DNA of 64,000 bases. It comes from Eledone cirrhosa (Eukaryota). Under the pieces are notes generated by a model. That model was not told the DNA's origin and did not search any database. It worked only from the letters and a program-made list of their open reading frames with translations. Shown piece after piece: positions 1 through 47,579 of the stretch. The DNA is taken from NCBI GenBank assembly GCA_964016885.1, contig OZ024743.1:162564001-162628000 (forward strand). The letters run 5' to 3'. Position numbers and translations under genes: made by a program. How positions within the stretch are numbered: position 1 is the stretch's first letter; each line of letters starts with the position of its first letter.

Positions 1-3000
1 ACTGTCCATTTAGATAACCAGACCACCACACTGTCAATCAGATAACCAGTCGACTACACTTTCCATTTAGATAACCAGACCACCACACTGTCCATTGAGA
101 TAACCAGACCACCACACTTTCCATTTAGATAACCAGACCACCACACTGTCCATTTAGATAACCAGACCACCACACTGTCCATTTAGATAACCAGACCACC
201 ACACTTTCCATTTAGATAACCAGACCACCACACTGTCCAAAGAGATAACCAGACCACCACACTGTCCATTTAGATAACCAGACCACCACACTGTCCATTT
301 AGATAACCAGACCACCACACTGTCCATTTAGATAACCAGACCACAACACTGTCCATTTAGATAACCAGACCACCACACTTTCCATTTAGATAACCAGACC
401 ACCACACTGTCCATTGAGATAACCAGACCACCACACTGTCCATTTAGATAACCAGACCACCACACTGACCATTTAGATAACCAGACAACCACACTGTCCA
501 TTTAGATAACCAGACCACCTCACTGTCCATTGAGATAACCAGACCACCACACTGTCCATTTAGATAACCAGACCACCACACTGTCCATTTAGATAACCAG
601 ACCACCACGCTGTCTATCAGATAACCAGACGACCACACTTTCCATTTAGATAACCAGACCACCACACTGACCCATTAGATAACCAGACCATCACACTGTC
701 CATTTAGATAACCAGACCAACACGCTGTTCATTTAGATAACCAAACCAGCACACGGACCATTTAGATCGCCAGACCACCACACTGACCATTTAGATAACC
801 ATACCACTACACTGACCATTGAAATAAAGAGACCACAACACTGACCATTTAGATAACCAGACCACCACACTGACCATTGAGATAACAAGACGACCAAACT
901 CTCCATTTAGATAACCAGACCATCACACTGACCATTTAGATAACCAGACCACCACACTGACCATTGAGATAACCAGACCACCACACTGTCCATTGATATA
1001 ATCAGACCACCACACTGTCCATTTAGATAACCAGACCATCACACTGACCATTTAGATAACCAGACCACCATATTGAACGTCTAGATAACCAGACCACCAG
1101 GCTGACCATTTAGATAACCAGACCATCACACTGACCATTGAGATAACCAGACCACCACTCTGACCATTTAGATTACCAGACCACCACACTGTCCATTTAG
1201 ATACCAAGACCACCACACTGTCCATTTAGATTACCAGACCACCACACTTTCCATTTAGATAACCAGACCACCACACTGTCCCTTTATATAACCAGACCAC
1301 CACACTTTCCGTTTAGATAACCAGACCACCACACTGTCCATTTATATAACCCGACCACCACACTGTCCATCAGATGACCTGACAACCACATTTTCCATTT
1401 AGATAACCAGACCACCACACTGTCCATTGAGATAACCAGACCACCACACTGTCCATTTAGATAACCAGACCACCACACTGTCCATTTAGATAACCAGACC
1501 ACCACACTGTCCATTTAGATAACCAGACCACCACAGTGTCTATTGAGATAACCAGACCACCACATTTTCCATTGAGATAACCAGACCACCACACTGACCA
1601 ATTAGATAACCGGACCATCACACTGTCCATTTAGATAACCAGACCACCACAGTGTCTATTGAGATAACCAGACCACCACATTTTCCATGGAGAAAAACAG
1701 ACCACCACACTGACCATTTAGATAACCAGACCACCACACTGTCCATTTAGATAACAAGACCACCACACTGACCATTTCGATAACCAGACCACCACACTGA
1801 CCATTGAGATAACCAGACCACCACACTGACCAATTAGATAACCAGAGCATCATACTGTCCAATTAGATAACCAGACCACCACACTGTCCATTTAGATAAC
1901 CAGACCACCACACTGTCCATTGAGATAACGACACCACCACACAGACCATCTAGATAACCTGACCGCCACACTGACCATTGAGATAACCAGACCACCATAC
2001 TGACCATTTAGATAACCAGACGACCACACTTTCTATTTAGATAACCAGACCACCACACTGTCCATTTATATAACCAGACCACCACACGTTCCATTTAGAT
2101 AACCAGACCACCACAATGTCCATTTATATAACCAGACCACCACACTGTCCATTGAGATAACCAGACCACCACACTGACCATCTAGATAACCAGACCACCA
2201 CACTGACCATTTAGATAACCAGACAACCACACTGACCATTTAGATAACCAGACCACCACACTGACCATTTAGATAACCAGACAACCACACTGACCATTTA
2301 GATAACCAGACCACCACACTGACCATTTAGATAACCAGACCACCACACTGTCCATTTAGATAACCAGACCACCACACTGTCCATTCAGATAACCAGACCA
2401 CCACACTGTCCATTCAGATAACCCGACCACCACACTGTCAATTGAGATAACCAGACCACCACATTGTCCATTGAGATAACCAGACCACCACACTGACGAA
2501 TTAGATAACCGGACCATCACACTGCCCATAGAGAGAACCAAGCCCCCACATTTTCCATTGAGATAACCAGACCACCACACTGACAATTTAGATAACCAGA
2601 CGACCACACTTTCCATCTAGATAACCAGACCACCACACTGACCAATTAGATAACCAGACCACCACATTGTCCATTGAGATAACCATACCACCACACTGTC
2701 CATTTAGATGACCAGACCACCACAGTGACCATTTAGATTACCAGACCACCACACTGACCATATAGATAACCAGACCACCACACTGACCATTTAGATAACC
2801 AAACCACCACACTGACCATATAGATAACCAGACAACCACACTGACCATTTAGATAACCAGACCACCACACTGACAATTTAGATAACCAGACGACCACACT
2901 TTCCATCTAGATAACCAGACCACCACACTGACCATATAGATAACCAGACCACCACACTGACCATTTAGATAACCAGACCACCACACTGTCCATTTAGATA

Positions 3001-6000
3001 ACCAGACCACCACACTGTCCATTTAGATAACCAGACCACCACACTGTCCATTTAGATAACCAGACCACCACACTGTCCATTTAGATAACCAGACCACCAC
3101 ACTGTCAATCAGATAACCAGTCGACTACACTTTCCATTTAGATAACCAGACCACCACACTGTCCATTGAGATAACCAGACCACCACACTTTCCATTTAGA
3201 TAACCAGACCACCACACTGTCCATTTAGATAACCAGACCACCACACTGTCCATTTAGATAACCAGACCACCACACTTTCCATTTAGATAACCAGACCACC
3301 ACACTGTCCAAAGAGATAACCAGACCACCACACTGTCCATTTAGATAACCAGACCACCACACTGTCCATTTAGATAACCAGACCACCACACTGTCCATTT
3401 AGATAACCAGACCACCACACTGTCCATTTAGATAACCAGACCACCACACTTTCCATTTAGATAACCAGACCACCACACTGTCCATTGAGATAACCAGACC
3501 ACCACACTGTCCATTTAGATAACCAGACCACCACACTGACCATTTAGATGACCAGACAACCACACTGTCCATTTAGATAACCAGACCACCTCACTGTCCA
3601 TTGAGATAACCAGACCACCACACTGTCCATTTAGATAACCAGACCACCACACTGTCCATTTAGATAACCAGACCACCACGCTGTCTATCAGATAACCAGA
3701 CGACCACACTTTCCATTTAGATAACCAGACCACCACACTGACCCATTAGATAACCAGACCATCACACTGTCCATTTAGATAACCAGACCAACACGCTGTT
3801 CATTTAGATAACCAAACCAGCACACGGACCATTTAGATCGCCAGACCACCACACTGACCATTTAGATAACCATACCACTACACTGACCATTGAAATAAAG
3901 AGACCACAACACTGACCATTTAGATAACCAGACCACCACACTGACCATTGAGATAACAAGACGACCAAACTCTCCATTTAGATAACCAGACCATCACACT
4001 GACCATTTAGATAACCAGACCACCACACTGACCATTGAGATAACCAGACCACCACACTGTCCATTGAGATAATCAGACCACCACACTGTCCATTTAGATA
4101 ACCAGACCACCACACTGTCCATTCAGATAACCCGACCACCACACTGTCAATTGAGATAACCAGACCACCACATTGTCCATTGAGATAACCAGACCACCAC
4201 ACTGACGAATTAGATAACCGGACCATCACACTGCCCATAGAGAGAACCAAGCCACCACATTTTCCATTGAGATAACCAGACCACCACACTGACAATTTAG
4301 ATAACCAGACGACCACACTGTCCATTTAGATAACCAGACCACCACACCGACCAATTAGATAACCAGACCACCACATTGTCCATTGAGATAACCATACCAC
4401 CACACTGTCCATTTAGATGACCAGACCACCACAGTGACCATTTAGATTACCAGACCACCACACTGACCATATAGATAACCAGACCACCACACTGACCATT
4501 TAGATAACCAAACCACCACACTGACCATATAGATAACCAGACAACCACACTGACCATTTAGATAACCAGACCACCACACTGACAATTTAGATAACCAGAC
4601 GACCACACTTTCCATCTAGATAACCAGACCACCACACTGACCAATTAGATAACCAGACCACCACATTGTCCATTGAGATAACCATTCCACCACACTGTCC
4701 ATTTAGATAACCAGACCACCACAGTGACCATTTAGATTACCAGACCACCACACTGACCATATAGATAACCAGACCACCACACTGACCATTTAGATAACCA
4801 AACCACCACACTGACCATATAGATAACCAGACCACCACACTGACCATTTAGATAACCAGACCACCACACTGACCATTTAGACAACCAGATCACCACACTG
4901 ACCATATAGATAACCAGACCACCACACTGACCATTTAGATAAGCAAACCAACACACTGACCATATAGATAACCAGACCATCACACTGACCATTTAGATAA
5001 CCAGACAACCACACTGACCATTTAGATAACCATACCACCACACTGACCATTTAGATAACCAGACCACCACACTGTCCATTTAGATAACGACGCCACAACA
5101 CTGACCAATTAGATAACCAGACCACCACACTGTCCATTTAGATAACCAGACCACCACACTGTCCATTGAGATAACGACACCACAACACTGACCAATTAGA
5201 TAACCAGACCACCACACTGACCATGTACATGACCAGACCACCAGACTAACTATTGAGATAACCAGACCACCACACTGACCATTTAGATAACCAGACCACC
5301 ACACTGACCATTGAGATAACCAGACCACCACACTGTCCGTTTAGATAACCAGACTATCACACTGTCCATTTAGATAACCAGACCACCACACTGTCCATCA
5401 GATAACCAGTCGACTACACTTTCCATTTAGATAACCAGACCATCACACTGTCCATTGAGATAACCAGACCACCACACCGTCCATTAGATGACCAGACCAC
5501 CACACTGTCCATCAGATAACCAGACCAGCACACTGTCCATTTGGATAACCAGACCAACACACTGTCCTTCAGATAACCCGAAGACCAGACTAACCATCTA
5601 GATAACCAGACCACCACACTGACCATTGAGATTACAAGACCACCACAATGACCATCAAATAACCAGACCACCACACTAACAATTTAAATAACCAAACCAC
5701 CTCACTGTCCATCAGATAACCAGACGACCACACTGACCATCTAGATAACCAGATCACCACACTGACCAATTAGATAACCAGACCACCACACTGACCATCT
5801 AGATGAGCAGACCACCACACTAACTACTGAGATCACCAGACCATCACACTGTCCATTGAGATATCCAGACCACCACACTGATCATTTAGATAACCAGACC
5901 ATCACACTGACCATTGAGATAAGCAGACAAACCACACTGACCATCTAGATAACCAAACCACCACACTGTCCATCAGATATGCAGACGACCACCCTGTCCA

Positions 6001-8049
6001 CTCAGATAACCAGACGACCACACTTCCATTTAGATAACCAGACCTCTACACTGTTCATTGAGATGACCAGACCACCACACTGCCCATTTAGATAACCAGA
6101 CCACCACACTGTCCATTTAGATATCTATACCACCACTCTCCATTGAGATAACCAGGCCACCACACTGTCCATTCAGATAATCAGACCACCACACTGACCA
6201 ATTACATAACCAGACCATCACACTGTCCATTGAGATAACCAGAGCACCAAACTTTCCATTCAGATAACCAGACCACCACACTGACCATTGCGATTACAAG
6301 ACCACCACACTGACAATTTAGATAACCAGACCACCACACTGTCCATTTAGATAACCAGACTACCACACTGACCATTTAGATAACCAGACCACCACACTGT
6401 CCATTGAGATAAACCAGACCACCACACTGTCCATTGAAATAACTAGACTACCACACTGACCATCTAGATATCCAGACCACCACACTCCCCATTCAGATAA
6501 CCAGACCACCACACTGTCCATCTAGATATCCAGACCACCACACTGACCATTGAGATGACCAGACCACCACACTCTCGATCAAATAACCAGACCACCACGC
6601 TGTCCATTGAAATAACTAGACCACCACACTGACCATTTAGATAACCAGACCACCACACTGTCCATTTAGATAACCAGTCCACCACACTGTCCATCAGATA
6701 ACCAGAGGACCACACTGACCATCTAGATAACCAGACCACTACAGTGACGATTTAGATAACCAGACCACCACACTGACCATTTAGATAACCAGACCACCAC
6801 ACTCCCCATTCAGATAACCAGACCACCACACTGTCCATCTAGATATCCAGACCACCACACTGACCATTGAGATGACCAGACCATCACACTCTCCATCAAA
6901 TAACCAGACGACCACAGTGTCCATTGAGATAACCAAACCACCACATTGTCCATTGAGATAACCAGACCACCATACTGACCATTTAGATAACCAGACCATC
7001 ACACTGACCATTGAATAACCAGAACACCACACTGACCATCTAGATAACCAGACCACCACACTGTCCATTTAGATAACCAGACTATCACACTGTCCATTTA
7101 GACAACCAGACCACCACACTGACCATTGAGATTACAAGACCACCACACTGACCATCTAGATAACCAGACCACCAGACTGTCCAATTAGATAACCAGACCA
7201 CCACACTGTCCATTAGATAACAAGACCACCACACTGACCATCTAGTTAACCAGACCACACTGACCATTGAGATGACCAGACGACCACATTTTCCGTTAAA
7301 CAACCAGACCACCACACTGTCCGTTTAGATAACCAGAGCACCACACTGTCCATTTAGATAACCAGACCACCACACTGACCCATTAGATAACCAGACCATC
7401 ACACTGTCCATTTAGATAACCAGACCACCACGCTGTTCATTTAGATAACCAAACCAGCACACGGACCATTTAGATAACCAGACCACCACACTGACCATTT
7501 AGATAACCAGACGACCAAACTCTCCATTTAGATAACCAGACCATCAGACTGACCATTTAGATAACCAGACCACCACACTGACCATTGAGATAACCAGACC
7601 ACCACACTGTCCATCAGATGACCTGACGACCACATTTTGCATTTAGATAACCAGACCACCACACTGACCATCTAGATGAGCAGACCACCACACTAACTAC
7701 TGAGATCACCAGACCATCACACTGTCCATTGAGATAACCAGACCACCACACTGTCCATTGAGATATCCAGACCACCACACTGATCATTTAGATAACCAGA
7801 CCATCACACTGACCATGGAGATAAGCAGACAAACCACACTGACCATCTAGATAACCAAACCACCACACTGTCCATCAGATATGCAGACGACCACACTGTC
7901 CACTTAGATAACCAGACCACCACATTGTCCATTTAGATAACCAGACCATCACACTGTCCATCAGATAACCAGACGACCACACTTCCATTTAGATAACCAG
8001 ACCTTCACACTGTCCATTGAGATGACCAGACCACCACACTGCCCATTTA

Positions 8050-8345
8050 GATAACCAGACCACCACACTGTCCATCAGATAATCAGACGACCACACTGTC
8101 CATTTAGATAACCAGACCACCACACTGTCCATCAGATAATCAGACGACCACACTGTCCAGTTAGATAACCAGACCACCACACTGTCCATCAGATAATCAG
8201 ACGACCACACTGTCCATTTAGATAACCAGACCACCACACTGTCCATCAGATAATCAGACGACCACACTGTCCATTTAGATAACCAGACCACCACACTGTC
8301 CATCAGATAATCAGACGACCACACTGTCCATTTAGATAACCAGAC
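8050..8345. repeat. 57-bp dimer (28+29 bp) repeated ~5 times
   Basis: Alternating CCATCAGATAATCAGACGAC and CCATTTAGATAACCAGACCAC monomers; appears as a 19-aa repeat in ORF 7989..8360. Confidence 0.9.
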
Positions 8346-8369
8346 CACCACACTGACCATTTAGATAAC

Positions 8370-9900
8370 CAGGCCACCACACTGTCCATTCAGATAATCA
8401 GACCACCACACTGACCATTGCGATTACAAGACCACCACACTGACAATTTAGATAACCAGACCACCACACTGTCCATTTAGATAACCAGACCACCACACTG
8501 ACCATTTAGATAACCAGACCACCACACTGTCCATTCAGATAACCCAACCACCACACTGTCAATTGAGATAACCAGACCACCACATTGTCCATTGAGATAA
8601 CCAGACCACCACACTGACGAATTAGATAACCGGACCATCACACTGTCCATAGAGAGAACCAAGCCACCACATTTTCCATTGAGATAACCAGACCACCACA
8701 CTGACAATTTAGATAACCAGACGACCACACTGTCCATTTAGATAACCAGACCACCACACTGTCCATCAGATAATCAGACGACCACACTGTCCATTTAGAT
8801 AACCAGACCACCACACTGACCATTTAGATAACCAGACCACCACACTGTCCATTTAGATATCTATACCACCACTCTCCATTGAGATAACCAGGCCACCACA
8901 CTGTCCATTCAGATAATCAGACCACCACACTGACCATTGCGATTACAAGACCACCACACTGACAATTTAGATAACCAGACCACCACACTGTCCATTTAGA
9001 TAACCAGACTACCACACTGACCATTTAGATAACCAGACCACCACACTGTCCATTCTGATAACCCGACCACCACACTGTCAATTGAGATAACCAGACCACC
9101 ACATTGTCCATTGAGATAACCAGACCACCACACTGACGAATTAGATAACCGGACCATCACACTGTCCATAGAGAGAACCAAGCCACCACATTTTCCATTG
9201 AGATAACCAGACCACCACACTGACAATTTAGATAACCAGACGACCACACTGTCCATTTAGATAACCAGACCACCACACTGTCCATCAGATAATCAGACGA
9301 CCACACTGTCCATTTAGATAACCAGACCACCACACTGTCCATTTAGATATCTATACCACCACTCTCCATTGAGATAACCAGGCCACGTCACTGTCCATTC
9401 AGATAATCAGACCACCACACTGACCATTGCGATTACAAGACCACCACACTGACAATTTAGATAACCAGACCACCACACTGTCCATTTAGATAACCAGATT
9501 ACCACACTGACCATTTAGATAACCAGACCACCACACTGTCCATTCAGATAACCCGACCACCACACTGTCAATTGAGATAACCAGACCACCACATTGTCCA
9601 TTGAGATAACCAGACCACCACACTGACGAATTAGATAACCGGACCATCACACTGTCCATAGAGAGAACCAAGCCACCACATTTTCCATTGAGATAACCAG
9701 ACCACCACACTGACAATTTAGATAACCAGACGACCACACTGTCCATTTAGATAACCAGACCACCACACTGTCCATCAGATAATCAGACGACCACACTGTC
9801 CATTTAGATAACCAGACCACCACACTGTCCATTTAGATATCTATACCACCACTCTCCATTGAGATAACCAGGCCACCTCACTGTCCATTCAGATAACCAT
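8370..9900. repeat. Triplicated ~490-519-bp higher-order unit (repeated at ~19730-21260)
   Basis: Near-identical ORFs at 8477, 8996 and 9486. The diagnostic variant CATAGAGAGAACCAAGCC recurs at these spacings. Confidence 0.9.
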
Positions 9901-10469
9901 ACCACCACACTGTCCATTTAGATAACCAGACCACCACATTGTCCATTGAGATAACCATACCACCACACTGTCCATTTAGATAACCAGACCACCACAGTGA
10001 CCATTTAGATTACCATACCACCACACTGACCATATAGATAACCAGACCACCACACTGACCATTTAGATAACCAGACCACCACACTGACCAAATAGATAAC
10101 CAGACCACCACACTGACCATTTAGATAACCAGACCACCACACTGACAATTTAGATAACCAGACGACCACACTTTCCATCTAGATAACCAGACCACCACAC
10201 AGACCAATTAGATAACCAGACCACCACATTGTCCATTGAGATAACCATACCACCATACTGTCCATTTAGATAACCAGACCACCACAGTGACCATTTAGAT
10301 TACCAGACCACCACGCTGACCATATAGATAACCAGACCACCACACTGACCATTTAGATAACCAGACCACCACACTGACCATATAGATAACCAGACCACCA
10401 CACTGACCATTTAGATAACCAGACCACCACACTGACCATTTAGACAACCAGATCACCACACTGACCATA

Positions 10470-13400
10470 TAGATAACCAGACCACCACACTGACCATTTA
10501 GATAAGCAAACCAACACACTGACCATATAGATAACCAGACCACCACACTGACCATTTAGATAACCAGACAACCACACTGACCATTTAGATAACCATACCA
10601 CCACACTGACCATTTAGATAACCAGACCACCACACTGTCCATTTAGATAACCAGACCACCACACTGCCCATTGAGATAACGACACCACAACACTGACCAA
10701 TTAGATAACCAGACCACCACACTGACCATGTACATGACCAGACCACCACACTAACTATTGAGATAACCAGACCACCACACTGACCATTTAGATAACCAGA
10801 CCACCATACTGACCATTGAGATAACCAGACCACCACACTGTCCATTTAGATAACCAGACTATCACACTGTCCATTTAGATAACCAGACCACGACACTGTC
10901 CATCAGATAACCAGTCCACTACACTTTCCATTTAGATAACCAGACCATCACACTGTCCATTGAGATAACCAGACCACCACACCGTCCATTAGATAACCAG
11001 ACCACCACACTGACCATTGAGATGACCAGACCACCACACTGTCAATCAGATAACCAGACCAGCACACTGTCCATTTGGATAACCAGACCAACACACTGTC
11101 CTTCAGATAACCCGAAGACCAGACTAACCATCTAGATAACCAGACCACCACACTGACCATTGAGATTACAAGACCACCACAATGACCATCAAATAACCAG
11201 ACCACCACACTAACAATTTAGATAACCAAACCACCTCACTGTCCATCAGATAACCAGACGACCACACTGACCATCTAGATAACCAGATCACCACACTGAC
11301 CGATTAGATAACCAGACCACCACACTGACCATCTAGATGAGCAGACCACCACACTAACTACTGAGATCACCAGACCCTCACACTGTCCATTGAGATATCC
11401 AGACCACCACACTGATCATTTAGATAACCAGACCATCACACTGACTATTGAGATAAGCAGACAAACCACACTGACCATCTAGATAACCAAACCACCACAC
11501 TGTCCATCAGATATGCAGACGACCACACTGTCCACTCAGATAACCAGACGACCACACTTCCATTTAGATAACCAGACCTTCACACTGTTCATTGAGATGA
11601 CCAGACCACCACACTGCCCATTTAGATAACCAGACCACCACACTGTCCATTTAGATATCTATACCACCACTCTCCATTGAGATAACCAGGCCACCACACT
11701 GTCCATTCAGATAATCAGACCACCACACTGACCAATTACATAACCAGACCATCACACTGTCCATTGAGATAACCAGAGCACCACACTTTCCATTCAGATA
11801 ACCAGACCACCACACTGACCATTGCGATTACAAGACCACCACACTGACAATTTAGATAACCAGACCACCACACTGTCCATTTAGATAACCAGACTACCAC
11901 ACTGACCATTTAGATAACCAGACCACCACACTGTCCATTGAGATAAACCAGACCACCACACTGTCCATTGAAATAACTAGACTACCACACTGACCATCTA
12001 GATAACCAGACCACCACACTCCCCATTCAGATAACCAGACCACCACACTGTCCATCTAGATATCCAGACCACCACACTGACCATTGAGATGACCAGACCA
12101 CCACACTCTCGATCAAATAACCAGACCACCACGCTGTCCATTGAAATAATTAGACCACCACACTGACCATTTAGATAACCAGACCACCACACTGTCCATT
12201 TAGATAAGCAGTCCACCACACTGTCCATCAGATGACCAGAGGACCACACTGACCATCTAGATAACCAGACCACTACACTGACGATTTAGATAACCAGACC
12301 ACCACACTGACCATTTAGATAACCAGACCACCACACTCCCCATTCAGATAACCAGACCACCACACTGTCCATCTAGATATCCAGACCACCACACTGACCA
12401 TTGAGATGACCAGACCATCACACTCTCCATCAAATAACCAGACGACCACAGTGTCCATTGAGATAACCAAACCACCACATTGTCCATTGAGATAACCAGA
12501 CCACCACACTGACCATTTAGATAACCAGACCATCACACTGACCATTGAATAACCAGAACACCACACTGACCATCTAGATAACCATACCACCACACTGTCC
12601 ATTTAGATAACCAGACTATCACACTGTCCATTTAGACAACCAGACCACCACACTGACCATTGAGATTACAAGACCACCACACTGACCATATAGATAACCA
12701 GACCACCACACTGACCATTTAGATAAGCAAACCAACACACTGACCATATAGATAACCAGACCACCACACTGACCATTTAGATAACCAGACAACCACACTG
12801 ACCATTTAGATAACCATACCACCACACTGACCATTTAGATAACCAGACCACCACACTGTCCATTTAGATAACCAGACCACCACACTGCCCATTGAGATAA
12901 CGACACCACAACACTGACCAATTAGATAACCAGACCACCACACTGACCATGTACATGACCAGACCACCACACTAACTATTGAGATAACCAGACCACCACA
13001 CTGACCATTTAGATAACCAGACCACCATACTGACCATTGAGATAACCAGACCACCACACTGTCCATTTAGATAACCAGACTATCACACTGTCCATTTAGA
13101 TAACCAGACCACCACACTGTCCATCAGATAACCAGTCCACTACACTTTCCATTTAGATAACCAGACCATCACACTGTCCATTGAGATAACCAGACCACCA
13201 CACCGTCCATTAGATAACCAGACCACCACACTGACCATTGAGATGACCAGACCACCACACTGTCAATCAGATAACCAGACCAGCACACTGTCCATTTGGA
13301 TAACCAGACCAACACACTGTCCTTCAGATAACCCGAAGACCAGACTAACCATCTAGATAACCAGACCACCACACTGACCATTGAGATTACAAGACCACCA

Positions 13401-26900: not shown

Positions 26901-29900
26901 ATTTAGATAACCAGACCATCACACTGACCATGGAGATAAGCAGACAAACCACACTGACCATCTAGATAACCAAACCACCACACTGTCCGTCAGTTATGCA
27001 GACGACCACACTGTCCACTTAGATAACCAGACCACCACACTGTCCATCAGATAACCAGACGACCACACTGTCCATTTAGATAACCAGACCACCACACTGT
27101 CCATCAGATAATCAGACGACCACACTGTCCATTTAGATAACCAGACCACCACACTGTCCATCAGATAATCAGACGACCACACTGTCCATTTAGATAACCA
27201 GACTACCACACTGACCATTTAGATAACCAGACTACCACACTGTCCATTTAGATAACCAGACTACCACACTGACCAATTATATAACCAGACCATCACACTG
27301 TCCATTGAGATAACCAGGCCACCACACTGTCCATTCAGATAACCAGACCACCACACTGACCATTGCGATTACTAGACCACCACACTGACAATTTAAATAA
27401 CCAGACCACCACACTGTCCATTTAGATAACCAGACCACCACACTGTCCATTTAGATAACCAGACCACCACACTGTCCATCTAGATAACCAGACCACCACA
27501 CTGTCCACTTAGATAACTAGACTACCACACTGACCATCTAAATAACCAGACCACCACACTGTCCATTTAGATAACCAGACCACCACACTGTCCATTGAGA
27601 TAAACCAGACCACCACACTGTCCATTTAGATAACCAGACCACCACACTGTCCATTGAGATAAACCAGACCACCACACTGTCCATTGAAATAACTAGATTA
27701 CCACACTGACCATCTAGATAACCAGACCACCACACTGTCCATTTAGATAACCAGTCCACCACACTGTCCATCAGATAACCAGAGGACCACACTGACCATC
27801 TAGATAACCAGACCACTACACTGACGATTTAGATAACCAAACCACCACACTGACCATTTAGATAACCAGACCACCACACTCCCCATTCAGATAACCAGAC
27901 CACCACACTGTCCATCTAGATATCCAGACCACCACACTGACCATTGAGATGACCAGACCACCACACTCTCCATCAAATAACCAGACGACCACAGTGTCCA
28001 TTGAGATAACCAAACCACCACATTGTCCATTGAGATAACCAGACCACCACACTGACCATTTAGATAACCAGACCATCACACTGACCATTGAATAACCAGA
28101 CCACCACACTGACCATCTAGATAACCAGACCACCACACTGACCATTTAGATACCAAGACACCCACACTGTACATTTAGATAACCAGACCATCACACTGTC
28201 CATCAGATAACCAGACGACCACACTTTCCATTTAGATAACCAGACCACGACACTGTCCATTGAGATAACCAGACCACCACACTGTCCATTTAGATAACCA
28301 GACCACCACACTGTCCATTTAGATAACCAGACTATCACACTGTCCATTTAGACAACCAGACCACCACACTGACCATTGAGATTACAAGACCACCACACTG
28401 ACCATCTAGATAAGCAGACCACCCGACTGTCCAATTAGATAACCAGACCACCACACTGTCCATTAGATAACAAGACCACCACACTGACCATCTAGTTAAC
28501 CAGACCACACTTACCATTGAGATGACCAGACGACCACATTTTCCGTTAAACAACCAGACCACCACACTGTCCGTTTAGATAACCAGACCACCACACTGTC
28601 CATCAGATAACCAGTCGACAACACTTTACATTTAGATAAACAGACCACCACACTGTCCATTGAGATAACCAGACCACCACACTGTCCATTTAGATGACCA
28701 GACCACCACACTGTCCATTTAGATAACCAGACCACCACACTGACCCATTAGATAACCAGACCATCACACTGTCCATTTAGATAACCAGACCACCACGCTG
28801 TTCATTTAGATAACCAAACCAGCACACGGACCATTTAGATTGCCAGACCACCACACTGACCATTTAGATAACCAGACCACTACACTGACCATTTAGATAA
28901 AGAGACCAGAACACTGACCATTTAGATAACCAGACCACCACACTGACCATTTAGATAACTAGACGACCAAACTCTCCATTTAGATAACCAGACCATCACA
29001 CTGACCATTTAGATAACCAGACCACCACACTGACCATTGAGATAACCAGACCACCACACTGTCCATTGAGATAATCAGACCACCACACTGTCCATTTAGA
29101 TAAACAGACCATCACACTGACCATTTAGATAACCAGACCACCATATGGAACATCTAGATAACCAGACCACCACATTGTCCATTGCGATTTCAAGACCACC
29201 ACAATGTCCATTGCGATAACCAGACCACCACGCTGACCATTTAGATAACCAGACCATCACACTGACCATTGAGATAACCAGACCACCACTCTGACCATTT
29301 AGATTACCAGACCACCACACTGTCCATTTAGATACCAAGACCACCACACTGTCCATCAGATGACCTGACAACCACATTTTCCATTTAGATAACCAGACCA
29401 CCACACTGACCATCTAGATAACCAGACCACTACACTCTCCAATTACAAAACCAGACCATCACACTGTCCATTGAGATAACCAGACCACAACATTTTCCAT
29501 TGAGATAACCACACCACCACTGACCATTTAGATAACCAGACCACCACATTGACCATTTAGATAACCAGACCACTACACTGACCATTTAGATAACCAGACG
29601 ATCACACTTACGATTTAGATAACCAGACCATCACACTGACCATTGAGATAACTAGACCACCAAACTGTCCATTGAGATAATCAGACCACCACACTGTCCA
29701 TTTAGATAACCAAACCATCACACTGACCATTTAGATAACCAGACCACCACTCTAACCATTGAGATAACCAGACCACCACACTGTCCATCTAGATAACCAG
29801 ACCACCACACTGTCCATCTAGATAACCAGACCACCACACTGACCATTTAGATATCCAGACCACCACACTGACCATTTGCATAACCAGACGACCACACTTA

Positions 29901-32900
29901 CCATTTCGATAACCAGACCATCACACTGACCATTGAGATAACCAGACCACCACACTGACCATATAGATCACCAAACCGCTGCACTGACCAATTAGATAAC
30001 CAGACCGCCACACTGACCATTTAGATAACCAGACCACCACACTGACCATTTAGATAACCAGACCACCACACTGACCATTTATATAACCAGACGACCAAAC
30101 TCTCCATTTAGATAACCAGACCACCACACTGACCATTTAGATAACCAGACCACCACACTGACCATTTATATAACCAGACGACCAAACTCTCCATTTAGAT
30201 AACCAGACCACCACACTGACCATTTAGATAACCAGACCACCACACTGACCATATAGATGACCAGACCACCACACTGACCATTTAGATGAGCAAACCACCA
30301 CACTGACCATATAGATAACCAGACCACGACACTGACCATTTAGATAACCAGACAACCACACTGACCATTTAGATAACCAGACCACCACACTGACCATATA
30401 GATAACCAGACCACCACACTGTCCATTGAGATAACGACACCACAACACTGACCAATTAGATAACCAGACCACCACACTGACCATGTGCATGACCAGACCA
30501 CCACACTGACCATCTAGATAACCAGACTACCACACTGTCCATTTAGATAACCAGACTATCACACTGTCCATTTAGATAACCAGACCACCACACTGTCCAT
30601 CAGATAACCAGACCACCACACTGTCCATCAGATAACCAGTCCACTACACTTTCCATTTAGATAACCAGACCATCACACTGTCCATTGAGATAACCAGACC
30701 ACCACACCATCTATTAGATAACCAGACCACCACACTGACCATTGAGATGACCAGACCACCACACTGTCCATCAGATAACCAGACCAGCACACTGTCCATT
30801 TGGATAACCCGACCAACACACTGTCCTTCAGATAACCTGACGACCAGACTAACCATCTAGATAACCAGACCACCACACTGACCATTGAGATTACAAGACC
30901 ACCACAATAACCATCAAATAACCAGACCACCACACTAACAATTTAGATAACCAAACCACCTCACTGTCCGTCAGATAACCAGACGACCACACTGACCATC
31001 TAGATAACCAGATCACCACACTGACCAATTAGATAACCAGACCACCACACTGACCATCTAGATGAGCAGACCACCACACTAACTACTGAGATCACCAGAC
31101 CATCACACTGTCCACTGAGATAACCAGACCTCCACACTGTCCATTGAGATATCCAGACCACCACACTGACCATTTAGATAACCAGACCATCACACTGACC
31201 ATTGACATAAGCAGACAAACCACACTGAACATCTAGATATCAAAACCACCACACTGTCCATCAGATATGCAGACGACCACACTGTCCATCAGATATGCAG
31301 ACAACCACACTGTCCACTTAGATAACCAGACCACCACACTGTCCATTTAGATAACCAGACCATCACACTGTCCATCAGATAACCAGACGACCACACTTCC
31401 ATTTAGATAACCAGACCTTCACACTGTCCATTGAGATGACCAGACCACCACACTGCCCATTTAGATAACCAGACGACCACACTGTCCATTTAGATAACCA
31501 GACCACCACACTGTCCATCAGATAATCAGACGACCACACTGTCCATTTAGATAACCAGACCACCACACTGACCATTTAGATAACCAGACCACCACACTGT
31601 CCATTTAGATATCTATACCACCACTCTCCATTGAGATAACCAGGCCACCACACTGTCCATTCAGATAATCAGACCACCACACTGACCATTTACATAACCA
31701 GACCATCACACTGTCCATTGAGATAACCAGAGCACCACACTTTCCATTCAGATAACCAGACCACCACACTGACCATTGCGATTACAAGACCACCACACTG
31801 ACAATTTAGATAACCAGACCACCACACTGTCCATTTAGATAACCAGACTACCACACTGACCATTTAGATAACCAGACCACCACACTGTCCATTGAGATAA
31901 ACCAGACCACCACACTGTCCATTGAAATAACTAGACCACACTGACCATCTAGATAACCAGACCACCACACTGTCCATTTAGATAACTAGTCCACCACACT
32001 GTCCATCAGATAACCAGAGGACCACACTGACCATCTAGATAACCAGACCACCACACTGTTCATTTTGATAACCAAAGCACCACACTGACCATCTAGATAA
32101 CCAGACCACTACACTGACGATTTAGATAACCAGACCACCACACTGACCATTTAGATAACCAGACCACCACACTCCCCATTCAGATAACCAGACCACCACA
32201 CTGTCCATCTAGATATCCAGACCACCACACTGACCATTGAGATGACCAGACCACCACACTCTCCATCAAATAACCAGACGACCACAGTGTCCATTGAGAT
32301 AACCAAACCACCACATTGTCCATTGAGATAACCAGACCACCACACTGACCATTGAATAACCAGACCACCACACTGACCATCTAGATAACCAGACCACCAC
32401 ACTGTCCATTTAGATACCAAGACCACCACACTGTACATTTAGATAACCAGACCATCACACTGTCCATCAGATAACCAGACGACCACACTTTCCATTTAGA
32501 TAACCAGACCACGACACTGTCCATGGAGATAACCAGACCACCACACTGTCCATTTAGATAACCAGACCACCACACTGTCCGTTTAGATAACCAGACTATC
32601 ACACTGTCCATTTAGACAACCAGACCACCACACTGACCATTGAGATTACAAGACCACCACACTGACCATCTAGATAACCAGACCACCAGACTGTCCAATT
32701 AGATAACCAGACCACCACACTCTCCATTAGATAACAAGACCACCACACTGACCATCTAGTTAACCAGACCACACTGACCATTGAGATGACCAGACGACCA
32801 CACTGTCCATTGAGATAACCAGACCACCACACTGTCCGTTTAGATAACCAGACCACCACACTGTCCATCAGATAACCAGTCGACTACACTTTCCATTTAG

Positions 32901-35319
32901 ATAACCAGACCACCACACTGTCCATTGAGATAACCAGAGCACCACACTGTCCATTTAGATAACCAGACCACCACGCTGTCTATCAGATAACCAGACGACC
33001 ACACTTTCCATTTAGATAACCAGACCACCACACTGACCCATTAGATAACCAGACCATCACACTGTCCATTTAGATAACCAGACCACCACGCTGACCATTT
33101 AGATAACCAGACCATCACACTGACCATTGAGATAAACAGGCCACCACTCTGACCATTTAGATTACCAGACCACCACACTGTCCATTTAGATACCAAGACC
33201 ACCACACTGTCCATTGAGATAACCAGACCACCACACTGTCCATTTAGATAACCAGACCACCACACTGTCCATCAGATGACCTGACGACCACATTTTCCAT
33301 TTAGATAACCAGACCACCACACTGACCATCTAGATAACCAGACCACTACACTCTCCAATTAGAAAACCAGACCATCACACTGTCCATTGAGATAACCAGA
33401 CCACAACATTTTCCATTGAGATAACCACAACACCACTGACCATTTAGATAACCAGACCACCACATTGACCATTTAGATAACCAGACCACTACACTGACCA
33501 TTTAGATAACCAGACGACCACAATTACCATTTAGATAACCAGACCATCACACTAACCATTGAGATAACTAGACCACCAAACTGTCCATTGAGATAATCAG
33601 ACCACCACACTCTCCATTTAGATAACCAAACCATCACACTGACCATTTAGATAACCAGACCACCACTCTAACCATTGAGATAACCAGACCACCACACTGT
33701 CCATCTAGATAACCAGACCACCACACTGACCATTTAGATATCCAGACCACCACACTGACCATTTGCATAACCAGACCACCACACTGACCAATTAGATAAC
33801 CAGACCATCACACTGACCATTGAGATTACTACACCACCACACTGTCCATTGAGATAACCAGACCACCACACTGACCATATAGATCACCAAACCGCTGTAC
33901 TGACCAATTAGATAACCAGACCGCCACACTGACCATTTAGATAACCAGACCACCACACTGACCATTTAGATAACCAGACCACCACACTGACCATTTATAT
34001 AACCAGACGACCAAACTCTCCATTTAGATAACCAGACCATCACACTGACCATTTAGATAACCAGACCACCACACTTTTCATTGAGATAACCAGACCACCA
34101 CACTGACCATTGAGATAATCAGACCACCACACTGTCCATTTACATAACCAGACCATCACACTGACCATTTAGATAACCAGAACAACACACTGACCATTGA
34201 GATAACCAGACCACCATATTGACCATCTAGATAACCAGACAACCACACTGTCTATTGAGATTTCAAGACCACCACAATGTCCATTGCGATAACCAGACCA
34301 CCACACTGACCATTTACATAACCAAACCAACACTCACCAATTAGATAACCAGACCACCACACTGATCATTTAGATAACCAGATCACCACTCTGTCCATCA
34401 GATAACCAGACGACCACACTGACCATTTAGATAACCAGACCAACACTGTCCATTTAGATAACCAGACCACCACACTGACCATTGAGATGACCAGACAACC
34501 ACACTGACCATTGAGATTACTATACCACCACACTGACCATTTAGATAACAGAAGCAACACTCACCAATTAGATAACCAGACCACCACCCTGTCCATTTAG
34601 ATAACCAGATCACCACACTGTCCATTTAGATAACCAGACCACCACACTGACCATTGGAATTACAAGACCACCACACTGTCCATCACATAACCAAACCACC
34701 ACACTGACCATTGAGATGACTAGACCACCACTCTGTCCAGCAGATAACAGGGACCACCACACTGACCATCTAGATAACCAGACCACACTGACCATTGAGA
34801 TGACCAGACGACCACATTCTCCGTTAAACAAGTCCATTTAGATACTGTCCATTTAGATAACCAGACCACGACACTGACCAATTAGATAACCAGACCACCA
34901 CACTGACCATCTACATGACCAGACCACCACACTAACTACTGAGATAACCAGACAACCACACTGACCATTTAGATAACCAGACCACCACACTGACCATCTA
35001 CATGACCAGACCACCACACTAACTACTGAGATAACCAGACAACCACACTGACCATTTAGATAACCAGACCATCACACTGACGATTGAGATAACCAGAGCA
35101 CAACACTGACAAGCTAGATAACCAGACCACCACACTGTCCATCAGATAACCGACGACCACACTTTCCATTTAAATAACCAGAACACCACACTGACCATTT
35201 AGATAACCAGACCACCATATTGAACATCTAGATAACCAGACCACCACATTGTCTATTGCGATTTCAAGACCACCACAATGTCCATTGCGATAACCAGACC
35301 ACCACGCTGACCATTTAGA

Positions 35320-38300
35320 TAACCAGACCATCACACTGACCATTGAGATAACCAGACCACCACTCTGACCATTTAGATTACCAGACCACCACACTTTCCA
35401 TTTAGATACCAAGACCACCACACTGTCCACTGAGATAACTAGACCACCACACTGTCCATTTAGATAACCAGACCACCACACTGTCCATCAGATGACCTGA
35501 CGACCACACTTTCCATTTAGATAACCAGACCACCACACTGACCATCTAGATAACCATACCACTACACTCTCCAATTAGATAACCAGACTATCACACTGTC
35601 CATTGAGATAACCAGACCACAACGTTTTCCATTGAGATAACCACACCACCACTGACCATTCAGATAACCAGACCACCACATTGACCATTTAGATAACCAG
35701 ACCACTACACTGACCATTTAGATAACCAGACCACCACACTTACCATTTAGATAACCAGCCCATCACACTGACCATTGAGATAACTAGACCACCAAACTGT
35801 CCATTGAGATAATCAGACCACCACACTGTCCATTTAGATAACCAAACCATCACACTGACCATTTAGATAACCAGACCACCACACTGTCCATCTAGATAAC
35901 CAGACCACCACACTGACCATTTAGATATCCAGACCACCACACTGACCATTTGCATAACCAGACCACCACACTGACCATTGAGATGACTAGACCACCACAC
36001 TGTCCATTGAGATAACCAGACCACCACACTGACCATTTAGATAACCAGACCACCACACTGACCATTTATATAACCAGACGACCAAACTCTCCATTTAGAT
36101 AACCAGACCATCACACTGACCATTTAGATAACCAGACCACCACACTGTCCATTGAGATAATCAGACCACCACACTGTCCATTTAGATAACCAGACCATCA
36201 CACTGACCATTTAGATAACCAGAACACCACACTGACCATTGAGATAACCAGACCACCATATTGACCATCTAGATAACCAGACAACCACACTGTCCATTGA
36301 GATTTCAAGACCACCACAATGTCCATTGCGATAACCAGACCACCATACTGATCATTTAGATAACCAGACCACCACTCTGTCCATCAGATAACCAGACGAC
36401 CACACTGACCATTTAGATAACCAGACCACCACACTGTCCATTTAGATAACCAGACCACCACAGTGACCATTGAGATGACCAGACAACCACACTGTCCATC
36501 AGATAACCAGACCACCACACTGTCCATTTAGATAACCTGACCACCACACTGTCCAATTAGATATCCAGACCACCACAATGACCAATTAGATAACCAGAAC
36601 ACCTCACTGTCCATTAAGATAACCAGACCACCACACTGACCATTGAGATTACTATACCACCACACTGACCATTTAGATAACCAAAGCAACACTCACCAAT
36701 TAGATAACCAGACCACCACACTGACCATTTAGATAACCAGATCACCACACTGACCATTGGAATTACAAGACCACCACACTGTCCATCAGATAACCAGACC
36801 ACGACACTGACCATTGAGATGACTAGACCACCACTCTGTCCAGCAGATAACCAGACCACCACACTGTCCATTTAGATAACCGGACCACCACTCTGTCCGT
36901 CATATAACCAGCCGACCACATGGACCATTTAGATAACCAGACCACCACACTGTCCATTTAGATAACAAGACTAACACACTGACCATTTAGATAACCAGAC
37001 CACCACACTGACCATTGAGATAACCAGACCACAAAACTGTCCATTGAGATAATCAGACCACCACACTGTCCATTTAGATAACCAGACCACCACACTGTCC
37101 ATTTAGATAACCATACCCCCACACTAACCATTGAGATAACCAGACCACCACACTATCCATCTAGATAACCAGACCACCACACTGACCATTTAGATAACCA
37201 GACCACCACACTGACCAATCAGATAACCAGACCATCACACTGACCATTGAGATAACCAGACCACCACACTGTCCATATAGATCACCAAACCGCCACACTG
37301 ACCAATTAGATAACCAGACCATCACACTGAACATTGAGATGACTAGACCACCACACTGTCCATTGAGATAACCAGACCACCACACTGTCCATATAGATCA
37401 CCAAACCGCCACACTGACCAATTAGATAAACAGACCATCACACTGACCATTGAGATGACTAGACCACCACACTGTCCATTGAGATAACCAGACCACCACA
37501 CTGACCATATAGATCACCAAACCGCCACACTGACCAATTAGATAACCAGACCGCCACACTGACCATTTAGATAACCAGACGACCATACTGACTATTTAGA
37601 TAACCACACCACCACACTGACCATTTATATAACCAGACGACCAAACTCTCCATTTAGATAACCAGACCACCACACTTTTCATTGAGATAACCAGACCACC
37701 ACACTGTCCATTGATATAATCAGACCACCATACTGTCCATTTAGATAACCAGACCATCACACTGACCATTTAGATAACCAGACCACCACACTGACCATTG
37801 AGATAACCAGACCATGACACTGACCATTGAGATAACCAAACCACGACACTGTCCATCTAGATAACCAGACAATCACACTGACCATTGAGATAACCAGACC
37901 ACCATATTGACCATCTAGATAACCAGACAACCACACTGTCCATTGAGATTCCAAGACCACCACAATGTACATTGCGATAACCAGACCACCACACTGACCA
38001 TTTTGATAACTAAACCAACACTCACCAATTAGATAACCAGACCACCACACTGACCATTTTGATAACTAAACCAACACTCACCAATTAGATAACCAGACCA
38101 CCACACTGACGATTTAGATAACCAGACCACCACACTGTCCATCAGATAACCAGACCACCACACTGACCATTTAGATAACCTGACCACCACACTGTCCATT
38201 TAGATAACCAGACCACCACACTGACCATTGAGATTACAAGACCACCACACTGTCCATTTAGATAACCAGACCACCACACCGTCCCTTTAGATAACCAGAC

Positions 38301-41300
38301 CACCACACTGACCATCTAGATAACCAGACCACCACACTGACCATCTAGATAACCAGACCAGCACACTGCCCATTGAGATAACCAGACCACCACACTGTCC
38401 ATTGAGATTACAAGACCACCACACTGTCCATTTAGATAACCAGACCACCACACTGTCCCTTTAGATAACCAGACCACCACACTGACCATCTAGATAACCA
38501 GACCAGCACACTGCTCATTGAGATAACCAGACCACGACACTGACAATTGAGATAACCAGATCACCACACTGACCATTGATATTACAAGACCACCACACTG
38601 TCCATTGATATAATCAGACCACCATACTGTCCATTTAGATAACCAGACCATCACACTGACCATTTAGATAACCAGACCACCACACTGACCATTGAGATAA
38701 CCAGACCATGACACTGACCATTGAGATAACCAAACCACGACACTGTCCATGTAGATAACCAAACAATCACACTGACCATTGAGATAACCAGACCACCATA
38801 TTGACCATCTAGATAACCAGACAACCACACTGTCCATTGAGATTCCAAGACCACCACAATGTACATTGCGATAACCAGACCACCACACTGACCATTTTGA
38901 TAACTAAACCAACACTCACCAATTAGATAACCAGACCACCACACTGACGATTTAGATAACCAGACCACCACACTGTCCATCAGATAACCAGACCACCACA
39001 CTGTCCATTTAGATAACCTGACCACCACACTGTCCATTTAGATAACCAGACCACCACACTGACCATTGAGATTACAAGACCACCACACTGTCCATTTAGA
39101 TAACCAGACCACCACACCGTCCCTTTAGATAACCAGACCACCACACTGACCATCTAGATAACCAGACCACCACACTGACCATCTAGATAACCAGACCAGC
39201 ACACTGCCCATTGAGATAACCAGACCATCACACTGACCATTGAGATAACCAGACCACCACTCTGACCATTTAGATTACCAGACCACCACACTTTCCATTT
39301 AGATACCAAGACCACCACACTGTCCACTGAGATAACCAGACCACCACACTGTCCATTTAGATAACCAGACCACCACACTGTCCATCAGATGACCTGACGA
39401 CCACACTTTCCATTTAGATAACCAGACCACCACACTGACCATCTAGATAACCATACCACTACACTCTCCAATTAGATAACCAGACCATCACACTGTCCAT
39501 TGAGATAACCAGACCACAACGTTTTCCATTGAGATAACCACACCACCACTGACCATTCAGATAACCAGACCACCACATTGACCATTTAGATAACCAGACC
39601 ACTACACTGACCATTTAGATAACCAGACCACCACACTTACCATTTAGATAACCAGCCCATCACACTGACCATTGAGATAACTAGACCACCAAACTGTCCA
39701 TTGAGATAATCAGACCACCACACTGTCCATTTAGATAACCAAACCATCACACTGACCATTTAGATAACCAGACCACCACACTGTCCATCTAGATAACCAG
39801 ACCACCACACTGACCATTTAGATATCCAGACCACCACACTGACCATTTGCATAACCAGACCACCACACTGACCATTGAGATGACTAGACCACCACACTGT
39901 CCATTGAGATAACCAGACCACCACACTGACCATTTAGATAACCAGACCACCACACTGACCATTTATATAACCAGACGACCAAACTCTCCATTTAGATAAC
40001 CAGACCATCACACTGACCATTTAGATAACCAGACCACCACACTGTCCATTGAGATAATCAGACCACCACACTGTCCATTTAGATAACCAGACCATCACAC
40101 TGACCATTTAGATAACCAGAACACCACACTGACCATTGAGATAACCAGACCACCATATTGACCATCTAGATAACCAGACAACCACACTGTCCATTGAGAT
40201 TTCAAGACCACCACAATGTCCATTGCGATAACCAGACCACCACACTGACCATTTAGATAACCAGACCACCACACTGTCCATTTAGATAACCAGACCACCA
40301 CAGTGACCATTGAGATGACCAGACAACCACACTGTCCATCAGATAACCAGACCACCACACTGTCCATTTAGATAACCTGACCACCACACTGTCCAATTAG
40401 ATATCCAGACCACCACAATGACCAATTAGATAACCAGAACACCTCACTGTCCATTAAGATAACCAGACCACCACACTGACCATTGAGATTACTATACCAC
40501 CACACTGACCATTTAGATAACCAAAGCAACACTTACCAATTAGATAACCAGCCCACCACACTGACCATTTAGATAACCAGATCACCACACTGTCCATTTA
40601 GATAACCAGACCACCACACTGACCATTTAGATAACCAGATCACCACACTGACCATTGGAATTACAAGACCACCACACTGTCCATCAGATAACCAGACCAC
40701 GACACTGACCATTTAGATAACCGGACCACCACTCTGTCCGTCATATAACCAGCCGACCACATGGACCATTTAGATAACGAGACCACCACACTGTCCATTT
40801 AGATAACAAGACTACCACATTGACCATTTAGATAACCAGACCACTACACTGACCATTTAGATAACAAGACTAACACACTGACCATTTAGATAACCAGACC
40901 ACCACACTGACCATTGAGATAACCAGACCACAAAACTGTCCATTGAGATAATCAGACCACCACACTGTCCATTTAGATAACCAGACCACCACACTGTCCA
41001 TTTAGATAACCAGACCCCCACACTAACCATTGAGATAACCAGACCACCACACTATCCATCTAGATAACTAGACCACCACACTGACCATTTAGATAACCAG
41101 ACCACCACACTGACCAATCAGATAACCAGACCATCACACTGACCATTGAGATAACCAGACCACCACACTGTCCATATAGATCACCAAACCGCCACACTGA
41201 CCAATTAGATAACCAGACCATCACACTGAACATTGAGATGACTAGACCACCACACTGTCCATTGAGATAACCAGACCACCTCACTGTCCATATAGATCAC

Positions 41301-42440
41301 CAAACCGCCACACTGACCAATTAGATAACCAGACCATCACACTGACCATTGAGATGACTAGACCACCACACTGTCCATTGAGATAACCAGACCACCACAC
41401 TGACCATATAGATCACCAAACCGCCACACTGACCAATTAGATAACCAGACCGCCACACTGACCATTTAGATAACCAGACGACCATACTGACTATTTAGAT
41501 AACCACACCACCACACTGACCATTTATATAACCAGACGACCAAACTCTCCATTTAGATAACCAGACCACCACACTTTTCATTGAGATAACCAGACCACCA
41601 CACTGTCCATTGATATAATCAGACCACCATACTGTCCATTTAGATAACCAGACCATCACACTGACCATTTAGATAACCAGACCACCACACTGACCATTGA
41701 GATAACCAGACCATGACACTGACCATTGAGATAACCAAACCACGACACTGTCCATCTAGATAACCAGACAATCACACTGACCATTGAGATAACCAGACCA
41801 CCATATTGACCATCTAGATAACCAGACAACCACACTGTCCATTGAGATTCCAAGACCACCACAATGTACATTGCGATAACCAGACCACCACACTGACCAT
41901 TTTGATAACTAAACCAACACTCACCAATTAGATAACCAGACCACCACACTGACGATTTAGATAACCAGACCACCACACTGTCCATCAGATAACCAGACCA
42001 CCACACTGTCCATTTAGATAACCTGACCACCACACTGTCCATTTAGATAACCAGACCACCACACTGACCATTGAGATTACAAGACCACCACACTGTCCAT
42101 TTAGATAACCAGACCACCACACCGTCCCTTTAGATAACCAGACCACCACACTGACCATCTAGATAACCAGACCACCACACTGACCATCTAGATAACCAGA
42201 CCAGCACACTGCCCATTGAGATAACCAGACCACCACACTGTCCATTGAGATTACAAGACCACCACACTGTCCATTTAGATAACCAGACCACCACACTGTC
42301 CCTTTAGATAACCAGACCACCACACTGACCATCTAGATAACCAGACCAGCACACTGCTCATTGAGATAACCAGACCACGACACTGACGATTGAGATAACC
42401 AGATCACCACACTGACCATTGATATTACAAGACCACCACA
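35320..42440. repeat. ~3.9-kb higher-order duplication near the array edge, with an internal ~0.9-kb duplication
   Basis: Offsets of 3,899 (37161/41060, 37757/41656) and 894 (37757/38651). Copies differ by whole-monomer indels and point changes. Confidence 0.85.
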
Positions 42441-43014
42441 CTGTCCATTGTCATAACCAGACCATGACATTGACCATTGAGATAACCAGATCACCACACT
42501 GACCATTGAGATTACAAGACCACCACACTGTCCACTAGATAACCAGACCATCACACTGTCCATTGAGATAACCAGACCACCACACTGTCCATTGAGATTA
42601 CAAGACCACCACACTGTCCACTATATAACCAGACCACCATAATGTCCATTGAGATAACCAGACCACCATAATGTCCATTGAGATAACCAGACTACCACAC
42701 TGTCCATTGAGATAACCAGACCACCATACTGTCCATTTAGATAACCAGACCACCACACTGAGCATTGAGATAACCAGACCACCACACTGACCATTGAGAT
42801 AACCAGACCACCATACTGCCCATTTAGATTACCAGATATACTACCACATTATACATTCATATAATCAACCAAAGTTTCATGTTATACATTCATTTAGCCA
42901 AACTATCAGGCCATACATTCAATGACCTGCCAATACACCAGATATGTAGATGATCACACAACCCATAGTAAACAAAGAATTAAAATATTCCATCCTCGAT
43001 AGAAAGTAACTTAC

Positions 43015-43087
43015 CAGTGTAAGTATTAGCATGGCAATAATGGCTCCAATGCGGGCCATTGTTGAACAAGCAGCTACACCGAGAGAC
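43015..43087 (-). CDS. SLC22-family transporter exon (TM11): SLGVAACSTMARIGAIIAMLILTL
   Basis: Acceptor tttcttgtAG, donor CTG|gtaagt; 73 bp; continues the frame from PTVVR. Confidence 0.93.
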
Positions 43088-47458: not shown

Positions 47459-47579
47459 CTGACGACAGTAGGAAACATCTCAGCTGTTAAGACTTGTAAA
47501 GCAGCCCAAGCCCCAGTTCCTGTACATTTGGCTAAAGTGATGAGTATTGTTATTGCAGTCTCATGAGAATTTCCACTTT
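47459..47579 (-). CDS. SLC22-family transporter exon (TM10): ESGNSHETAITILITLAKCTGTGAWAALQVLTAEMFPTVVR
   Basis: Acceptor tttgcAG, donor AG|gtaagt; 121 bp; E[LM]FPTxxR signature. Confidence 0.94.

Follow-up and report, generated by a model that had tools for sequence, protein, structure and literature searches.

A single-locus 29-bp minisatellite in intron 8 of an SLC22-like transporter gene of Eledone cirrhosa

Tandem arrays inside introns are known from human, Drosophila and amphioxus genes, and these provide the closest comparison for the subject of this report, a 29-bp tandem array in intron 8 of an SLC22-like transporter gene of the octopod Eledone cirrhosa. The array was met in a stretch of 64,000 nucleotides (termed the window: positions 162,564,001 to 162,628,000 of contig OZ024743.1, assembly GCA_964016885.1, or G000:C4:162564001-162628000), to which flanks of 100 kb on the left and 50 kb on the right were added. 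The whole genome comprises 2.996 Gb.

The 30-mer repeat in intron 3 of human CACNA1C spans 3 to >30 kb, mostly ∼6 kb (Song, Lowe and Kingsley, 10.1101/311795); that study documents a single unit in chimpanzee, polymorphism, a lineage-specific origin and enhancer activity. The Drosophila genes kl-3 and kl-5, as described in PMC6508621 and PMC11207136, are Y-linked and belong to a spermatocyte programme served by dedicated RNA-binding proteins, and their megabase introns of simple satellite make up >99% of the locus. Amphioxus intronic minisatellites and “mirages” are, according to PMC3087553, embedded in genes and leave normal splicing unblocked.

Within this set, the Eledone array resembles the CACNA1C repeat more closely than the Drosophila Y-loop genes. 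As in CACNA1C, a unit of ∼30 bp is repeated head to tail, with interspersed variants, at one locus in an intron of an intact gene. Unlike that repeat, which forms a small part of its intron, the present array measures 75.7 kb, or 98% of the intron, and is ∼2.5 times the size of the largest allele given in that paper. The original prediction had drawn its analogy with the Drosophila genes, which share a tandem-repeat-filled intron in an intact, spliced gene, but the analogy did not hold further: the intron is 77 kb rather than megabases long, the unit is a private 29-mer rather than a simple satellite, the array covers 60% rather than >99% of the span, and the host is a transporter gene on a 379-Mb contig. 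There was no sign that special factors are needed for its expression. The amphioxus minisatellites are similarly invertebrate and gene-embedded, with a homogenised interior and diverged edges; they consist of a few units that duplicate exon-intron borders, in contrast to the thousands of purely intronic units found here. The genome-wide pattern described below is the more interesting lead. A literature search for intronic arrays of cephalopods and other invertebrates, with most subscription journals outside its reach, did not find that pattern described, and the parts consulted of a shark paper (10.1101/2025.06.08.657570) and a cephalopod methylation paper (PMC9476566) held nothing on intronic arrays. 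The locus itself provides a clean and fully assembled example of splicing over an intron of which tandem repeat makes up 98%.

We consider it probable that a 29-bp minisatellite private to this locus takes up 75.7 kb of the 76.9-kb intron 8 in an intact, spliced SLC22-like gene, and that it arose in place, grew by unequal exchange and is carried as a tolerated passenger. Positions 1-42836 of the window form one tandem array of period 29 with 1,484.8 copies (a single row of Tandem Repeats Finder, TRF). The full array, at G000:C4:162531153-162606836, measures 75,684 bp and 2,619.7 copies without Ns. The original figures of >42.8 kb and ∼1,480 or more monomers stood as lower bounds, the true size being 75.7 kb and ∼2,620 copies. 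Tiling yielded 2,618 units, with one poorly scoring tile, no insertion and no N, and the gene proved to have nine exons encoding 515 residues, which bears out the initial description of a pure array inside an intron of an intact SLC22 gene. The units are arranged head to tail, with an identity to the consensus of ∼0.90-0.93 across the array; 458 of the 2,618 tiles are distinct, and the most frequent tile occurs 260 times. The transcribed strand is the minus strand and is G/T-rich (G 0.33, T 0.36). When a coding or exonised array was considered, the longest stop-free frame on the sense strand was 143 residues, and a scan of window positions 40000-64000 against Rfam gave no matches.

An exact genome search with a 22-mer of the unit returned 887 matches, all inside the array, while a 19-mer with one mismatch allowed returned 1,663, of which 1,662 were inside it; neither matched on the reverse strand. 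Because the matches are confined to the array in this way, the 29-bp repeat is classed as a single-locus minisatellite, neither a dispersed nor a centromeric satellite. Its identity as a multi-locus or centromeric satellite was ruled out on the same ground, as one locus only was found.

The host gene is read from the minus strand. Five of its exons lie in the window, have AG/GT ends and splice to one open frame of 224 residues. As originally noted, these in-frame exons end at a CTG/GTAAGT donor some 180 bp from the array; the intron starts at 43014, and the exact distance is 178 bp. The gene and the adjoining part of the array comprise the following features:

Window-relative 91817-92146, 76434-76665 and 71371-71560: exons 1-3, right of the window
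Window 63721..63853, minus strand: exon 4, 133 bp
Window 60991..61253, minus strand: exon 5, 263 bp
Window 51208..51290, minus strand: exon 6, 83 bp
Window 47459..47579, minus strand: exon 7, 121 bp
Window 43015..43087, minus strand: exon 8, 73 bp, donor CTG/GTAAGT, phase 0
Window 1..43014, minus strand: intron 8, in-window part
Window 42837..43014, plus strand: spacer between array and donor, 178 bp, with decayed likeness to the unit
Window 1..42836, plus strand: right 42.8 kb of the array (TRF and tiling), the remaining 32.8 kb lying left of the window
G000:C4:162529956-162530078 (L006:5956-6078): exon 9, left of the window, 123 bp, with transmembrane segment 12 (TM12), LPET and stop

The absence of TM12 and of an LPET-type C-terminus from the window had been remarked upon at the outset, and a search to the left of the window located both in exon 9. 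This exon lies 1,074 bp beyond the array and has a pyrimidine-rich acceptor of phase 0, matching the exon 8 donor. Intron 8 measures 76,936 bp, of which 98.4% is array, while the other seven introns range from 2.5 to 15.2 kb; the array and the intron account for 60% and 61%, respectively, of the 126-kb span from ATG to stop. The complete gene model contains nine exons and 1,548 nucleotides (nt), with a complete frame of 515 residues through TM12 and what we take to be the LPET motif.

Exon 5 has its best homolog in an organic cation transporter of Octopus vulgaris (P0001, 83% identity). The gene model is identical to P0001 at 434 of 515 positions, without gaps, exon 9 is 82.5% identical, and the C-terminus ends at the same position in the model, in P0001 and in the Argonauta protein P0002. 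Single exons searched alone against Pfam gave no match; P0001, an 84% identical ortholog, matches Sugar_tr (PF00083, E 3.9e-36) and MFS_1. Among solved structures, all 26 matches of P0001 at E up to 1e-10 were of SLC22 type, the best being OCTN2, OCT2 and OCT1 chains (E 1.9e-58 to 6e-46). Judged by these sequence comparisons, the host gene is an intact octopod SLC22-like transporter, putatively an organic ion transporter. It is like the SLC22 organic cation, carnitine and anion transporters in its Pfam domains and closest structures (via the O. vulgaris ortholog), and differs in that the octopod proteins (P0001, P0002 and the present gene) stop ∼15 residues past the LPET motif.

Splicing of intron 8 was examined in sequencing runs, none of which is recorded as RNA. 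Run X4, from the same organism but another sample, has contigs totalling 88 million letters and was called transcript-like solely from its exon-only cover. The check for a spliced junction out of exon 8, proposed with the original prediction, was answered by one X4 contig (1,784 nt, depth 13.8), which places positions 1-132 on exon 9 and 131-206 on exon 8 with no mismatches; the two placements overlap only by shared junction letters. The unique intron sequence flanking exons 8 and 9 had no X4 cover. The contig was placed on exons 8 and 9 alone, and its length would accommodate the full coding sequence with ∼228 nt upstream of the start codon and 8 nt downstream of the stop. A contig of run X9, from another organism, covers exon 8 and has loose ends that run into exon-9 and exon-7 letters. 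Since the X4 and X9 contigs both join exon 8 to exon 9, the junction is made, although the array length in the X4 sample may differ, and the join would imply transcription of the repeat-containing intron. Two repeat contigs, 116 and 59 nt long (depth 4-8), also occur in X4 and represent either pre-mRNA or DNA carry-over. A retrocopy as the source of the X4 join is unlikely, as exon 5 has one strong genomic match.

An AATAAA on the minus strand overlaps the stop codon of exon 9 (L006:5950-5958), and the X4 contig stops 8 nt past that codon, an end that in a contig cannot be equated with the RNA end. The 3' untranslated region may be very short.

The arrangement of the assembly was checked against DNA runs. 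In X1, a run that may represent the assembly's own data, a 496-nt contig covers 42850-43284 and extends another 61 nt to the left, so that this contig over the right junction reaches inside the last array units. Summed contig depth in X1 was 15,525 on two units versus 9.3 on the unique flank, a rough figure of ∼1,670 times. None of the contigs placed bridges the left junction. Because of this, and because the depth figure is rough, the exact array length is less certain than the arrangement. Runs X5 and X8 (DNA, other organisms) left two array units uncovered at 85% likeness; contigs cannot show absence, and these runs were not used.

The internal structure of the array points to growth by duplication of large blocks. 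No regular higher-order repeat was found, as self-similarity at lags of 1-40 units peaked at ≤0.051 (background 0.020), and peaks occurred only at irregular lags, e.g., 394, 425 and 819 units. Duplicates of ≥1 kb at ≥98% identity account for 48.9 of the 75.7 kb, all in the core, where the duplicated blocks measure 2.4-12.9 kb each with 98.0-99.3% identity and include three tandem blocks of 11-13 kb at 98.4-98.9%. The outer 12 kb and 14 kb of the array carry no such duplicates. The parts of this structure that fall in the window are the following:

Window 63..11112, plus strand: second of the three tandem core blocks, 98.9% identical over 11,055 bp to a block 12,286 bp leftward
Window 15659..28508, plus strand: core block, 98.4% identical over 12,857 bp to window 4297-17145, at an offset of 11,362 bp
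Window 28509..42836, plus strand: outer array zone, without 1-kb duplicates at ≥98%

The block at 15659..28508 contains the longest stretch of identical units, 261 in number (∼7.6 kb). Consensus identity is ∼0.90-0.92 in the outer zone versus ∼0.93 in the left part of the array, and the outer zone is likely to be older than the core. A duplicate-rich core with diverged edges is the pattern that would be expected of recent unequal exchange in the core and older edges, and the array probably grew as repeated unequal exchange duplicated blocks of several kb. It also likely arose in place from a local unit, because a decayed resemblance to the unit persists in the 178-bp spacer (local score 38, reached by none of 300 base shuffles, whose mean was 19).

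In the mechanism that we propose, RNA polymerase II would read through the array, and the spliceosome would pair the normal donor before it with the normal acceptor after it, because competing acceptors and poly(A) signals are nearly absent from the array. The transcribed strand carries no AATAAA or ATTAAA in 75.7 kb, versus 103 in 47.8 kb (2.15 per kb) of the gene's other introns, and four pyrimidine-rich acceptors, versus 140 on the opposite strand. Such a signal-poor sense strand makes read-through and normal splice-site pairing plausible. A longer transit would follow from the length of the array, and this extra time would be its cost, without a selected role.

Several observations weigh against parts of this interpretation. 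The left flank of the array shows no significant likeness to the unit (p 0.12). X4 derives from another sample without an RNA record, and we infer rather than observe splicing over the exact 75.7-kb allele; the neutrality of the array is likewise presumed. The sense strand contains ∼900 weak donor-like GGTCAGT sites, 12 strong donor-like sites whose pairing with the U1 end equals that of the stronger donors of the gene (scored with a U1 motif that we assumed), and 2,327 TGTG words. These sites and words could bind U1 or UG-binding proteins, leaving room for an active effect. Finally, of 29-mers drawn at random from ordinary intron DNA and tandemised, 88% also lack both poly(A) and acceptor signals, so that their absence here provides no evidence of selection. 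The idea that the unit was selected to be free of poly(A) signals and acceptors was dropped on this ground, and strand and base skews among 17 arrays were inconsistent, running in both directions.

That the array is a selected regulator, its length delaying completion of the mRNA or its units serving as an enhancer or attracting U1 or UG-binding proteins, appears unlikely. The last exon carries TM12, and no full protein could be made before transit ends. Elongation by RNA polymerase II typically proceeds at 1-3 kb/min, a rate that does not come from octopods, and at this rate the array would add roughly 25-75 min. The low-depth repeat contigs of X4, the donor-like sites and the enhancer activity of the CACNA1C array (10.1101/311795) could be read in the same sense. 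Against this, unrelated genes that the sampling struck by chance also have introns filled with unrelated units, which removes the need for a special role in one more; in addition, the unit is private and its core region appears to have been recently reshuffled. A delay or rheostat role, as originally suggested, would be possible but is unsupported; nothing found requires it, and no sign of a selected role was found.

Somewhat less probable still is a real, intronic array whose assembled length is inflated by two stacked haplotypes or by repetition of an 11-12-kb block. The three tandem blocks and the 261-unit identical run mark places where assemblers err, and the left junction has no bridging contig, but the blocks differ by 120-194 substitutions plus gaps, the array is free of Ns and the unit depth in X1, rough as it is and possibly from the assembly's own data, far exceeds that of the unique flank. 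Even with every later copy removed, ∼44 kb of array remain. The alternative raised at the start, that the array has truncated the gene, or else that the junction near 42836 is a mis-join, is very improbable. Exon 9 is present, in phase and shares its C-terminus with the O. vulgaris ortholog, the exon 8-9 join is seen in X4 and X9, and the X1 contig runs from exon 8 and the spacer into the last units; truncation and mis-join were both rejected on this evidence, nothing having been found in their favour. The tolerated, locally derived minisatellite remains the reading that we prefer.

The rarity implied by the original prediction was not upheld. Among 59 evenly spaced 10-kb genome samples on 19 contigs, arrays of ≥1 kb with period ≥10 made up ∼16% of the bases, and seven samples (12%, 95% interval 6-23%) hit arrays of ≥10 kb, five being wholly array and two running off an end. 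The seven giant arrays have seven different units and reach 145 kb. Flanks were read for three of the seven, the 64-mer, 26-mer and 35-mer arrays, and genome searches covered the units other than the 64- and 82-mer.

Some of the giant-array units are common to several loci. The 16-mer and 19-mer arrays represent multi-locus satellites, with 70,186 and 19,498 exact matches, and are candidate centromeric repeats. A 48-mer array of at least 71 kb (G000:C8:39980101-40051000) has a related 49-bp array on another chromosome (C2:410.02-410.06 Mb), and a 61-bp unit is present on both C2 and C5. Conversely, the 35-mer and 26-mer gave forward-only matches beginning at their own loci, which would fit arrays private to those loci. 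The 35-mer array (G000:C3:359979203-360124351) measures 145 kb, about twice the size of the transporter array; for its host, 12 of 43 candidate flank frames were scanned against Pfam, without a match.

Two of the three arrays whose flanks were examined sit in introns, as predicted from homology. The 11.2-kb 64-mer array separates two exons of a P450 3A-like gene, encoding residues 174-226 and 228-271; introns further along this gene contain a 20-mer array of 7.0 kb and a 61-mer array of 3.9 kb. The 30.3-kb 26-mer array splits a CNH domain: same-strand frames on its two sides match CNH profile positions 3-66 (E 5e-7) and 50-122 (E 0.019, weak), the latter followed by a match to 182-218 (E 4e-6). 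For the latter gene, 22 of 135 candidate frames were searched, and the call rests on Pfam matches only; a homolog search with a PH-like exon near the array passed none of 66 candidates. From its domain order, we take the gene to be citron-kinase-like.

Extrapolated roughly from these small numbers, a few hundred megabases, about a tenth of the 3-Gb genome, would belong to arrays of ≥10 kb, with intronic cases plausibly numbering around a thousand. The transporter array would accordingly be one case of a genome-wide tendency to very long minisatellites, introns included. We hold the chances to be even that this amounts to a genome-wide regime, in which ordinary genes, about a thousand in number and including transporters, P450s and CNH-domain signalling genes, have intronic arrays of 10-150 kb, many with private units, and are still spliced; array length would then be a large source of variation in transcript timing, unannotated and quick to mutate. 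The base rate of giant arrays bears on cephalopod genome size and annotation. One octopus genome paper limited introns to 20 kb in RNA alignment (PMC9795677), a limit under which the exon 8-9 junction would be missed. The private unit of the transporter array is also a ready probe for RNA and DNA fluorescence in situ hybridisation on a single gene, and for tests of whether intron length tunes expression.

Further repeats were observed around these loci. Within the transporter gene, intron 7 contains a degenerate GACTG pentamer array of 415 bp (window 43449-43863), 360 bp upstream of exon 8, and intron 2 an 870-bp array with a 27-bp unit (G000:C4:162636529-162637398). Broken frames in introns 5 and 6, at 59733-60566 (plus strand), ∼51600-53700 (minus) and 49125-49502 (minus), presumably resemble LINE reverse-transcriptase and GIY-YIG endonuclease fragments. 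The P450 3A-like gene (G000:C2:409978245-410060000; L084, L085, L050, L092, L105-L109) has exons 73-94% identical to the O. bimaculoides protein P0007, with >30 kb of 49-bp array upstream of the first exon found and at least 27.9 kb of a 37-bp array past the last. The CNH-domain gene (G000:C5:9972801-10050000, minus strand; L110, L111, L041, L112-L115) shows frames of coiled-coil, PH-like and CNH type, and 80 kb at this locus contain seven more arrays, built of other units. Probes 50 kb apart at C3 360180001 and 360230001 both hold a 67-bp array. The 16-bp (L047, C2:210 Mb) and 19-bp (L061, C5:60 Mb) satellites occur on several chromosomes and adjoin each other on C1:279.3-279.4 Mb. The chromosome set appears very uneven, with four contigs of 379-443 Mb versus ≤135 Mb for the rest of those seen.

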